Shown in pieces: positions 32,578 to 32,815 of a stretch of 64,000 nucleotides of DNA (the first letter of the stretch is position 1; the number at the start of each line of letters is the position of its first letter). The notes beneath the pieces are model-generated. The model had not been told where the DNA came from and ran no database searches. It saw only the letters and a program-made list of their open reading frames with translations. The position numbers and the translations under genes are program-made. This DNA comes from Convolutriloba macropyga (lineage: Eukaryota), in the NCBI RefSeq assembly GCF_964194025.1, contig NC_134473.1:70060001-70124000 (forward strand), in the 5' to 3' direction.

Positions 32578-32815
32578 ATGAACCGGCCTGCTACGCTATA
32601 TGAGATTTTGTTGGTAAAAATTCGGCTTAAAAAATCGGATCAAGAAAAACTGCCACAAAATGAGATTGTTGACGCAGCCTGATGCTGGTGGAGCCAAAGA
32701 GTTCCTCATGACCATCAACCGATCATATGAGATTCTGACAAATGATGCGGCGCGAAAAGCGTACAACATATTTGTACTTGACGAGGCAGAAGAAGTTATG
32801 AACGACAAAAGCTGA
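32578..32815 (+). pseudogene. Frameshifted stand-alone DnaJ (J-domain) ORF just upstream of the 3' LTR
   Basis: Frame A from ATG 32578 reads MNRPATLYEILLVK. The +1 frame from ~32633 reads NRIKKNCHKMRLLTQPDAGGAKEFLMTINRSYEILTNDAARKAYNIFVLDEAEEVMNDKS*. This matches the J-domain pattern YEILGV..IKKAYRKL..HPD..F..IN.AYEIL.D...RKAYD. HPD appears as QPD (CAG at 32675). Confidence 0.8.

Follow-up and report, generated by a model that had tools for sequence, protein, structure and literature searches.

We found that a J domain encoded in the genome of Convolutriloba macropyga forms the end of ORF4, a fourth gene of about 280–300 aa that Ty3/Gypsy elements of the gag-pol-env type carry downstream of env and ahead of the 3′ LTR. 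The window, a 64,000-nt stretch of the forward strand (GCF_964194025.1, NC_134473.1, 70,060,001–70,124,000), holds one broken copy of such an element. The initial annotation had described it as a Gypsy LTR retrotransposon with a J-domain ORF of ~79 codons, a “mini J protein”, ~160 bp upstream of the 3′ LTR. The claimed peptide pieces are present at 32578–32815 on the + strand, split over two frames, and the segment lies on the pol strand upstream of the true 3′ LTR, where a polypurine tract remnant is present. The C-terminal piece alone matches the Pfam DnaJ family (PF00226) with E 8.1e-5, which supports the J-domain assignment, but its 23.1 bits fall below the cut-off of 27.8. Other parts of the description had to be revised. 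Homology extends over ~31920–32815, and the relatives have an open frame of 280–310 codons in which the J domain is the last ~75 residues; the Met at 32578 taken as the ORF start is Leu in most young copies; and the stop lies only ~128 nt from the LTR, which runs from ~32944. Rather than a mini J protein, the gene thus encodes a product of ~300 aa, predicted to combine a Tudor-like barrel with a coiled coil. Nor are the elements canonical Gypsy: they have four genes, env among them.

The window copy is an old, broken member of an older family-1 subfamily, with all features on the + strand. Its 5′ LTR (25576–25991), recognized by comparison with the LTRs of other copies, lacks its left end. A primer-binding-site-like motif (25993–26001), also found 3′ of the 5′ LTR in other copies, leads directly into RNase H, with gag, protease and reverse transcriptase (RT) missing; pol homology begins at 26012. 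A first decayed pol remnant with RNase H (PF17917, E 2e-25) and integrase (tblastn) occupies 26012–27990, and a second, also decayed and identified by homology, runs from integrase to the pol C-terminus at 28339–29801. Between them lie the duplicated first 66 codons of env (28119–28316), part of an internal repeat (27205–28316 and 28962–30069, 89% identical). The env remnant itself (29875–31695) was located by tblastn with the env of a relative and belongs to a chuvirus-like, gB-type fusion glycoprotein family, PF24664, which relatives match over the cut-off. The initial annotation had overlooked this env, the loss of gag-protease-RT and the internal duplication.

Downstream of env, decayed ~37-nt tandem units with an A-tract and a 6-bp hairpin, a family-1 feature of which two units are recognizable here, occupy 31700–31870. 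A predicted splice acceptor (31913–31922), a T-rich tract plus AG found at the same place in families 1–3, marks the start of ORF4 (31923–32815), which carries six frameshifting indels relative to one young copy. ORF4 comprises a predicted N-terminal Tudor/SH3-like barrel (31942–32092; AlphaFold on the family alignment, Foldseek and VIA), a coiled coil predicted as a parallel dimer (32093–32592; family-2 model and homodimer prediction) and the J domain with a C-terminal helix (32593–32815, stop at 32813–32815; Pfam DnaJ comparison). Comparison with other copies places the polypurine tract remnant at 32932–32943 and the 3′ LTR at 32944–33374. The two window LTRs are 75% identical over 407 nt, about the level between any two old copies, and match the LTRs of other old copies at 73–81% (75–81% for the 5′ LTR). 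With an identity no closer than this, and with the left end of the 5′ LTR gone, they may stem from one insertion or from separate ones; the link between ORF4, env and the 3′ LTR holds either way. Elsewhere, the window contains a 100% identical direct repeat ~6 kb apart (1–300 and 6016–6315), reflecting a recent duplication or an assembly repeat; mosaic tandem duplications at 21430–25800 with a partial third LTR copy (24122–24344); about 22 tandem units of ~543 nt (36500–48700); and a LINE-type element with endonuclease and RT whose frames are largely open (51596–54333). No tRNA genes were found in the window.

The suggestion that the J gene is cargo of an element family is borne out by a search of the organism's own 1.18-Gb genome. 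The J peptide query returned 803 first-look candidates, and all 150 that were scored matched (E ≤1.2e-16). The family LTR was found at 30 of the 30 best J loci, the window locus among them, and the env C-terminus lay within 1.5 kb at 23. Because many family-1 matches close open frames of 300–312 codons (Pfam DnaJ 56–60 bits), the J domain is the last quarter of a larger gene. Open-frame family relatives score 45–60 bits, and the DnaJ cut-off is exceeded in all three families and in four homologues from outside the genome (41–60 bits). Ten family-1 copies, picked for long open frames, show the order LTR (~430 nt), primer-binding-site-like motif, gag (351 codons, with a zinc knuckle), pol, env (677 codons, matching the Monjiviricetes fusion family PF24664), ORF4, polypurine tract and 3′ LTR. 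Nine of the ten have a full LTR pair, 93–99.8% alike, and a 4-bp target-site duplication is exact in seven, has one mismatch in one and is missing in one; the remaining copy is rearranged. Pol in the relatives follows the protease-RT-RNase H-integrase order of Ty3/Gypsy, and the window copy keeps RNase H followed by integrase.

A Pfam DnaJ search of the genome revealed a second repeated J type, which led to family 2, with 617-nt LTRs and the same gene order; among 20 further copies, integrase was nearby in 18, env in 19 and the LTR in 19. Family 3, reached by profile search, has the same layout and, in one paired copy, a 946-nt LTR. The ORF4 slot, 3′ of env and 5′ of the 3′ LTR, is thus common to three families with LTRs of ~430, 617 and 946 nt. 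Env has 677–689 codons and a C-terminal hydrophobic window; it matches PF24664 over the cut-off in families 1 and 2, with a homologue in family 3. Pol identity ranges from ~55 to 64% overall (families 1 and 2 share 55%, and family 3 shares about 63% with each of them), compared with about 30–45% for env and 26–32% for ORF4. Judged by sequence, the elements fit Ty3/Gypsy LTR retrotransposons in pol order, paired LTRs, primer-binding site, polypurine tract and target-site duplication, and are env-bearing and errantivirus-like, with an env of the gB-type family. Two proteins considered as a separate subfamily (P0011 and P0012) were rejected as such, both being family-1 copies read partly in another frame. 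Several loci show rearranged units. One family-1 insertion (L043, G000:C3:47482800-47492700) retains only an open ORF4, with gag, pol and env deleted, between LTRs that are 96% alike and flanked by a 4-bp duplication. ORF4-LTR units often occur in tandem at 1.4–3 kb spacing (L029/L028, L035/L036, L127 and G000:C10:58954437-58962372), and at L141:7953-9900 a family-3 ORF4 is followed immediately by a family-2 insertion of reverse orientation.

Selection among copies, a check that the initial annotation had proposed, shows ORF4 to be under purifying selection. Among 26 open family-2 copies, singleton variants are neutral (63 synonymous to 222 nonsynonymous, at a site ratio of 1 : 3.76), whereas variants present in at least 3 of the 26 copies number 52.5 synonymous to 29.5 nonsynonymous (pN/pS 0.14; Fisher p 7e-12). 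Constraint on shared variants extends to all three parts, with pN/pS values of 0.11 (barrel), 0.17 (coil) and 0.10 (J domain). In 17 family-1 copies the trend has the same direction but is weaker: the shared variants gave a pN/pS of 0.24, with a borderline contrast of 9 : 9 versus 43 : 122 (p 0.051), and the young copies have no shared synonymous change in the barrel. All 10 old copies of the window's subfamily, compared with one young copy, differ more at four-fold sites (0.32–0.40) than at second positions (0.09–0.15), and the barrel and J domain are the most constrained parts of the pooled old family-1 copies. Coil length varies about two-fold between families. Across ten diverged ORF4 proteins, 18 columns are invariant, including the H, P and D of HPD. 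The window copy has QPD at 32675–32683, and its interpretation as a decayed HPD holds up: HPD is kept in 49 of 51 family-1 segments recovered by pattern and in 21 of 26 family-2 copies (three differ and two are unread), counts that are biased toward HPD by the choice of loci by score.

AlphaFold, run on an alignment of natural family-2 copies, predicts a beta barrel (residues 1–50), a 138-residue helix and a J domain with an extra C-terminal helix. The full model has a pLDDT of 81 and a pTM of 0.31, and its J part overlays solved J domains with an rmsd of ~2 Å (Foldseek). Modeled alone, the barrel reaches a pLDDT of 82, with two of five models confident. Its top Foldseek rows are mostly Tudor (SPF30, TDRD3, SMN and Krimper) and PWWP domains, none at E < 0.001, with an rmsd of 1.4–1.8 Å over ~49 residues to SMN and TDRD3; its best VIA Z of 7.8 is tied with SH3, KOW and other barrels. 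These weak, generic matches reflect a common SH3-like fold and imply no function. Sequence searches of Pfam and the PDB found no Tudor match, the PDB search with the barrel alignment returning three chance-level rows only. At what we take to be the aromatic-cage positions of SMN, the cage residues are apparently not kept in the barrel, which weakens a role as a methyl reader. The +1 frame across the family-1 barrel can be read as Cys-rich, but this reading was discarded because a stop interrupts it in family 2.

The homodimer prediction yields a parallel coiled coil with a score of 0.33, against 0.00 for the best of three controls; contacts agree across runs by at least 59%, with a pLDDT of at least 71. 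Of the microbial benchmarks, 21 of 30 solved pairs attained the mark used but none of 23 single chains; of animal pairs, 7 of 16 did. The ORF4 score lies just at this mark, which coiled coils may pass through memorization by the predictor. Because no hydrophobic segment was found in ORF4, the protein is likely cytosolic or nuclear. It does not have the class A/B DnaJ (Hsp40) layout: no DnaJ_C or zinc-finger match was found, and the J domain is C-terminal. The best ESM Atlas feature score was 0.81, to unnamed clusters, and offers a lead at most.

Several signals suggest how ORF4 might be expressed. A strong donor-like motif is kept in the leader of the elements, and env and ORF4 are each preceded by acceptor-like sites in every one of the three families. 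In families 2 and 3, the ORF4 acceptor is accompanied by a CTAAT motif resembling a branch point and, just downstream, by an ATG of ORF4's own. We infer from these signals that ORF4 is expressed from its own spliced RNA, and the four-gene organization is probably alternatively spliced. No spliced retro-copies were found among loci L001–L172 with five candidate donors, and contigs of four runs over ORF4, of unrecorded kind, showed deletion-type joints only among the matches listed, which bear on neither expression nor splicing; a look-up of RNA records listed none for the ORF4 stretch. In family 1, the tandem array between env and ORF4 is variable, with up to 20 units of 37 nt (L036:7369-8124) and, at loose match, 4–11 units in 17 open-frame copies; families 2 and 3 are without it. 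The array could be an insulator, an internal promoter or an RNA export signal, and the 6-bp hairpin of its unit resembles a Pol III B-box.

A second check raised by the initial annotation, phylogeny against host DNAJ genes, set the element J domains apart. A tree built from 58 J domains unites 16 of them in a clade (99/95) made up of 13 element rows and three “other” rows that read as same-family fragments, and none of the 17 best-scoring non-element J exons of the same genome, which served as the host set, falls inside it. The tree has 75 columns and an unsettled bootstrap, and it held no T-antigen sequence. Among outside rows, the closest come from metagenomes and are compact, DnaJA-like proteins with HPDKGG, but the tree is too weak for the donor of the J domain to be named. 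A profile search recovered full-length barrel-coil-J proteins (P0179, P0181, P0186, P0189 and P0198) and a partial one (P0194), all on Logan/ENA contigs. The best matches of P0179 and P0189 in the C. macropyga genome are at 34–50% and 30%, respectively, and P0194 has no match there at E 1e-45. By these protein sequences, through which alone it is known elsewhere, the ORF4-type gene is not confined to the C. macropyga assembly. Viral contigs and JGI metagenomes yielded no DNA context for the outside homologues, and a further search gave 80 loci that match mainly the J part. The P0186 cluster has 14 members on contigs of about 0.7–1.4, 2–3 and 6.6–9.3 kb; were these contigs transcript assemblies, their sizes would be those expected of subgenomic and full-length element RNAs.

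What might such a protein do? Our tentative proposal, to which we give slightly less than an even chance, is that ORF4 is a tether that brings host Hsp70 to a large host complex otherwise restraining the element. Made from its own spliced RNA, ORF4 would dimerize in parallel, so that the two barrels sit together at one end and the two J domains at the other, with about 20 nm between the ends (138 residues at 0.15 nm). The HPD motif stimulates Hsp70, and the remainder of a class C J protein sets its site of action; by analogy, ORF4 very probably stimulates Hsp70 through HPD. The barrel would dock on a silencing RNP granule or on chromatin, and the recruited Hsp70 would remodel or dismantle the complex, as SV40 T antigen does Rb-E2F, a pair of steps for which we put the case at a little under one half. 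With barrels and J domains predicted to lie ~20 nm apart and a coil whose length can vary, the layout fits a tether on a large assembly.

ORF4 could instead be a private co-chaperone of the element's own particle, its barrel binding Gag, Pol or element RNA and Hsp70 serving capsid assembly, RNA packaging, transport or uncoating, a reading close to that of the initial annotation, which we consider somewhat less probable. In three families ORF4 accompanies gag-pol-env, a particle is the kind of large object that a ~20-nm tether could serve, and SH3/KOW/PWWP-type barrels often bind nucleic acid, the top VIA row being a PWWP-ssDNA complex. Pfam also gives a weak hint in this direction, since 4 of 14 members match the SH3 domain at the integrase C-terminus (E 0.18), but profile comparison (probability 0.2%) does not support the barrel as a duplicate of that domain. 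Moreover, most Gypsy elements, with or without env, assemble without any such gene. Between the two, we lean toward a silencing granule or chromatin of the host, because the nearest folds of the barrel are Tudor-type and because viral J domains dismantle host complexes; this preference is thin, and the apparent loss of the aromatic cage counts against it.

Other explanations fare less well. Action on the general stress response, in which ORF4 would titrate or redirect Hsp70 and so raise chaperone levels or LTR transcription, would have a phage precedent in Rki with DnaK and sigma32 and would agree with the retention of HPD, but most phage J-domain proteins of the Rki kind are described as having no other known domain (PMC13254874). 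In ORF4 the barrel and coil are selected as strongly as the J domain, which indicates a specific docking site, and we regard a stress-response role as improbable. It is less probable still that splicing joins family-1 ORF4 to an exon of env or gag upstream, so that the J protein is secreted, perhaps as a lumenal co-chaperone of the envelope protein, or fused to Gag. In family 1, no in-frame ATG precedes the first strand of the barrel, conservation of the coding type sets in directly behind the predicted phase-1 acceptor, and phase-1 donor-like sites occur at env codon 72 and gag codon 280. However, donor-like motifs are common by chance, no spliced retro-copy was found among L001–L172, and families 2 and 3 supply their own ATG just after the acceptor. 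Finally, the decay of the window copy and its not demonstrably paired LTRs could have suggested a processed pseudogene of a host DNAJ gene or a neutral passenger near an LTR. Descent from one gene with neutral evolution is refuted by selection, by the single J clade with 0/17 host rows inside it and by the fixed slot in three families with hundreds of candidates, so that this reading is left with almost no probability.

The individual ingredients of these elements have been described before. Ty3/Gypsy “errantiviruses” carrying an HSV/gB-type, chuvirus-like env are known (PMC13524379), and the ORF4 elements resemble them in their LTR-gag-pol-env-LTR organization, Ty3/Gypsy pol order, Monjiviricetes-family env and many near-identical copies, but differ in having a conserved fourth gene after env; the main text of that work mentions no DnaJ, J domain, Hsp40, chaperone or Tudor (PMC13524379). 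Bdelloid Juno and Vesta LTR elements likewise have a captured, conserved accessory gene 3′ of pol, but their non-env extra ORFs encode GDSL esterases or DEDDy exonucleases and replace env, whereas ORF4 is a J-domain protein added to env; DnaJ and chaperones are not mentioned in the available text (PMC5408684). Viral J-domain proteins include polyomavirus T antigen and phage Rki (PMC13254874; PMC3486835), which share with ORF4 a compact HPDxGG J domain from a genetic parasite and a class C layout of J domain plus presumed targeting part (PMC13254874). As far as its available text goes, that J-protein review lists no retroelement, with 0 occurrences of “retrotranspos” (PMC13254874). Unlike the ORF4 elements, T antigen and Rki belong to DNA viruses. 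In T antigen, an LxCxE motif and a helicase are joined to a J domain at the N-terminus. HIV nef and foamy virus tas/bet sit between env and the 3′ LTR, and ORF4 resembles these accessory genes of complex retroviruses in its slot and predicted spliced expression; unlike them, it resides in Ty3/Gypsy elements, and no homology is claimed. A literature search, with Repbase, subscription journals and supplements outside its scope, found no J-domain gene in an LTR retrotransposon; one apparent precedent (PMC9004415) was rejected, as “dnaj” occurs there just once, in a table, as the name of a host gene. Env-bearing Gypsy elements, extra ORFs and viral J proteins are thus each known.

A broader and more speculative possibility, which we think unlikely on present evidence, is that one old and widespread clade of enveloped retroelements in invertebrates consists of retrovirus-like viruses of the “complex” type, whose spliced accessory gene occupies the nef slot. 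Its product would be a Tudor mimic that binds PIWI/piRNA granules or silent chromatin and whose J domain would have host Hsp70 take the silencing machinery apart. If true, ORF4 would be the first retroelement-encoded J-domain co-chaperone and would represent a T-antigen-like strategy reached independently. To our knowledge, animal transposon-encoded silencing suppressors are scarce, and ORF4 is a small, soluble candidate for which HPD offers a handle and natural HPD-less variants offer a comparison. A four-gene Ty3/Gypsy organization would escape surveys limited to gag-pol-env. In the usual view, the use of host chaperones by LTR retrotransposons is passive; a J adaptor that is encoded by the element and kept by selection would mean that they, like polyomaviruses and some phages, can direct Hsp70 themselves.
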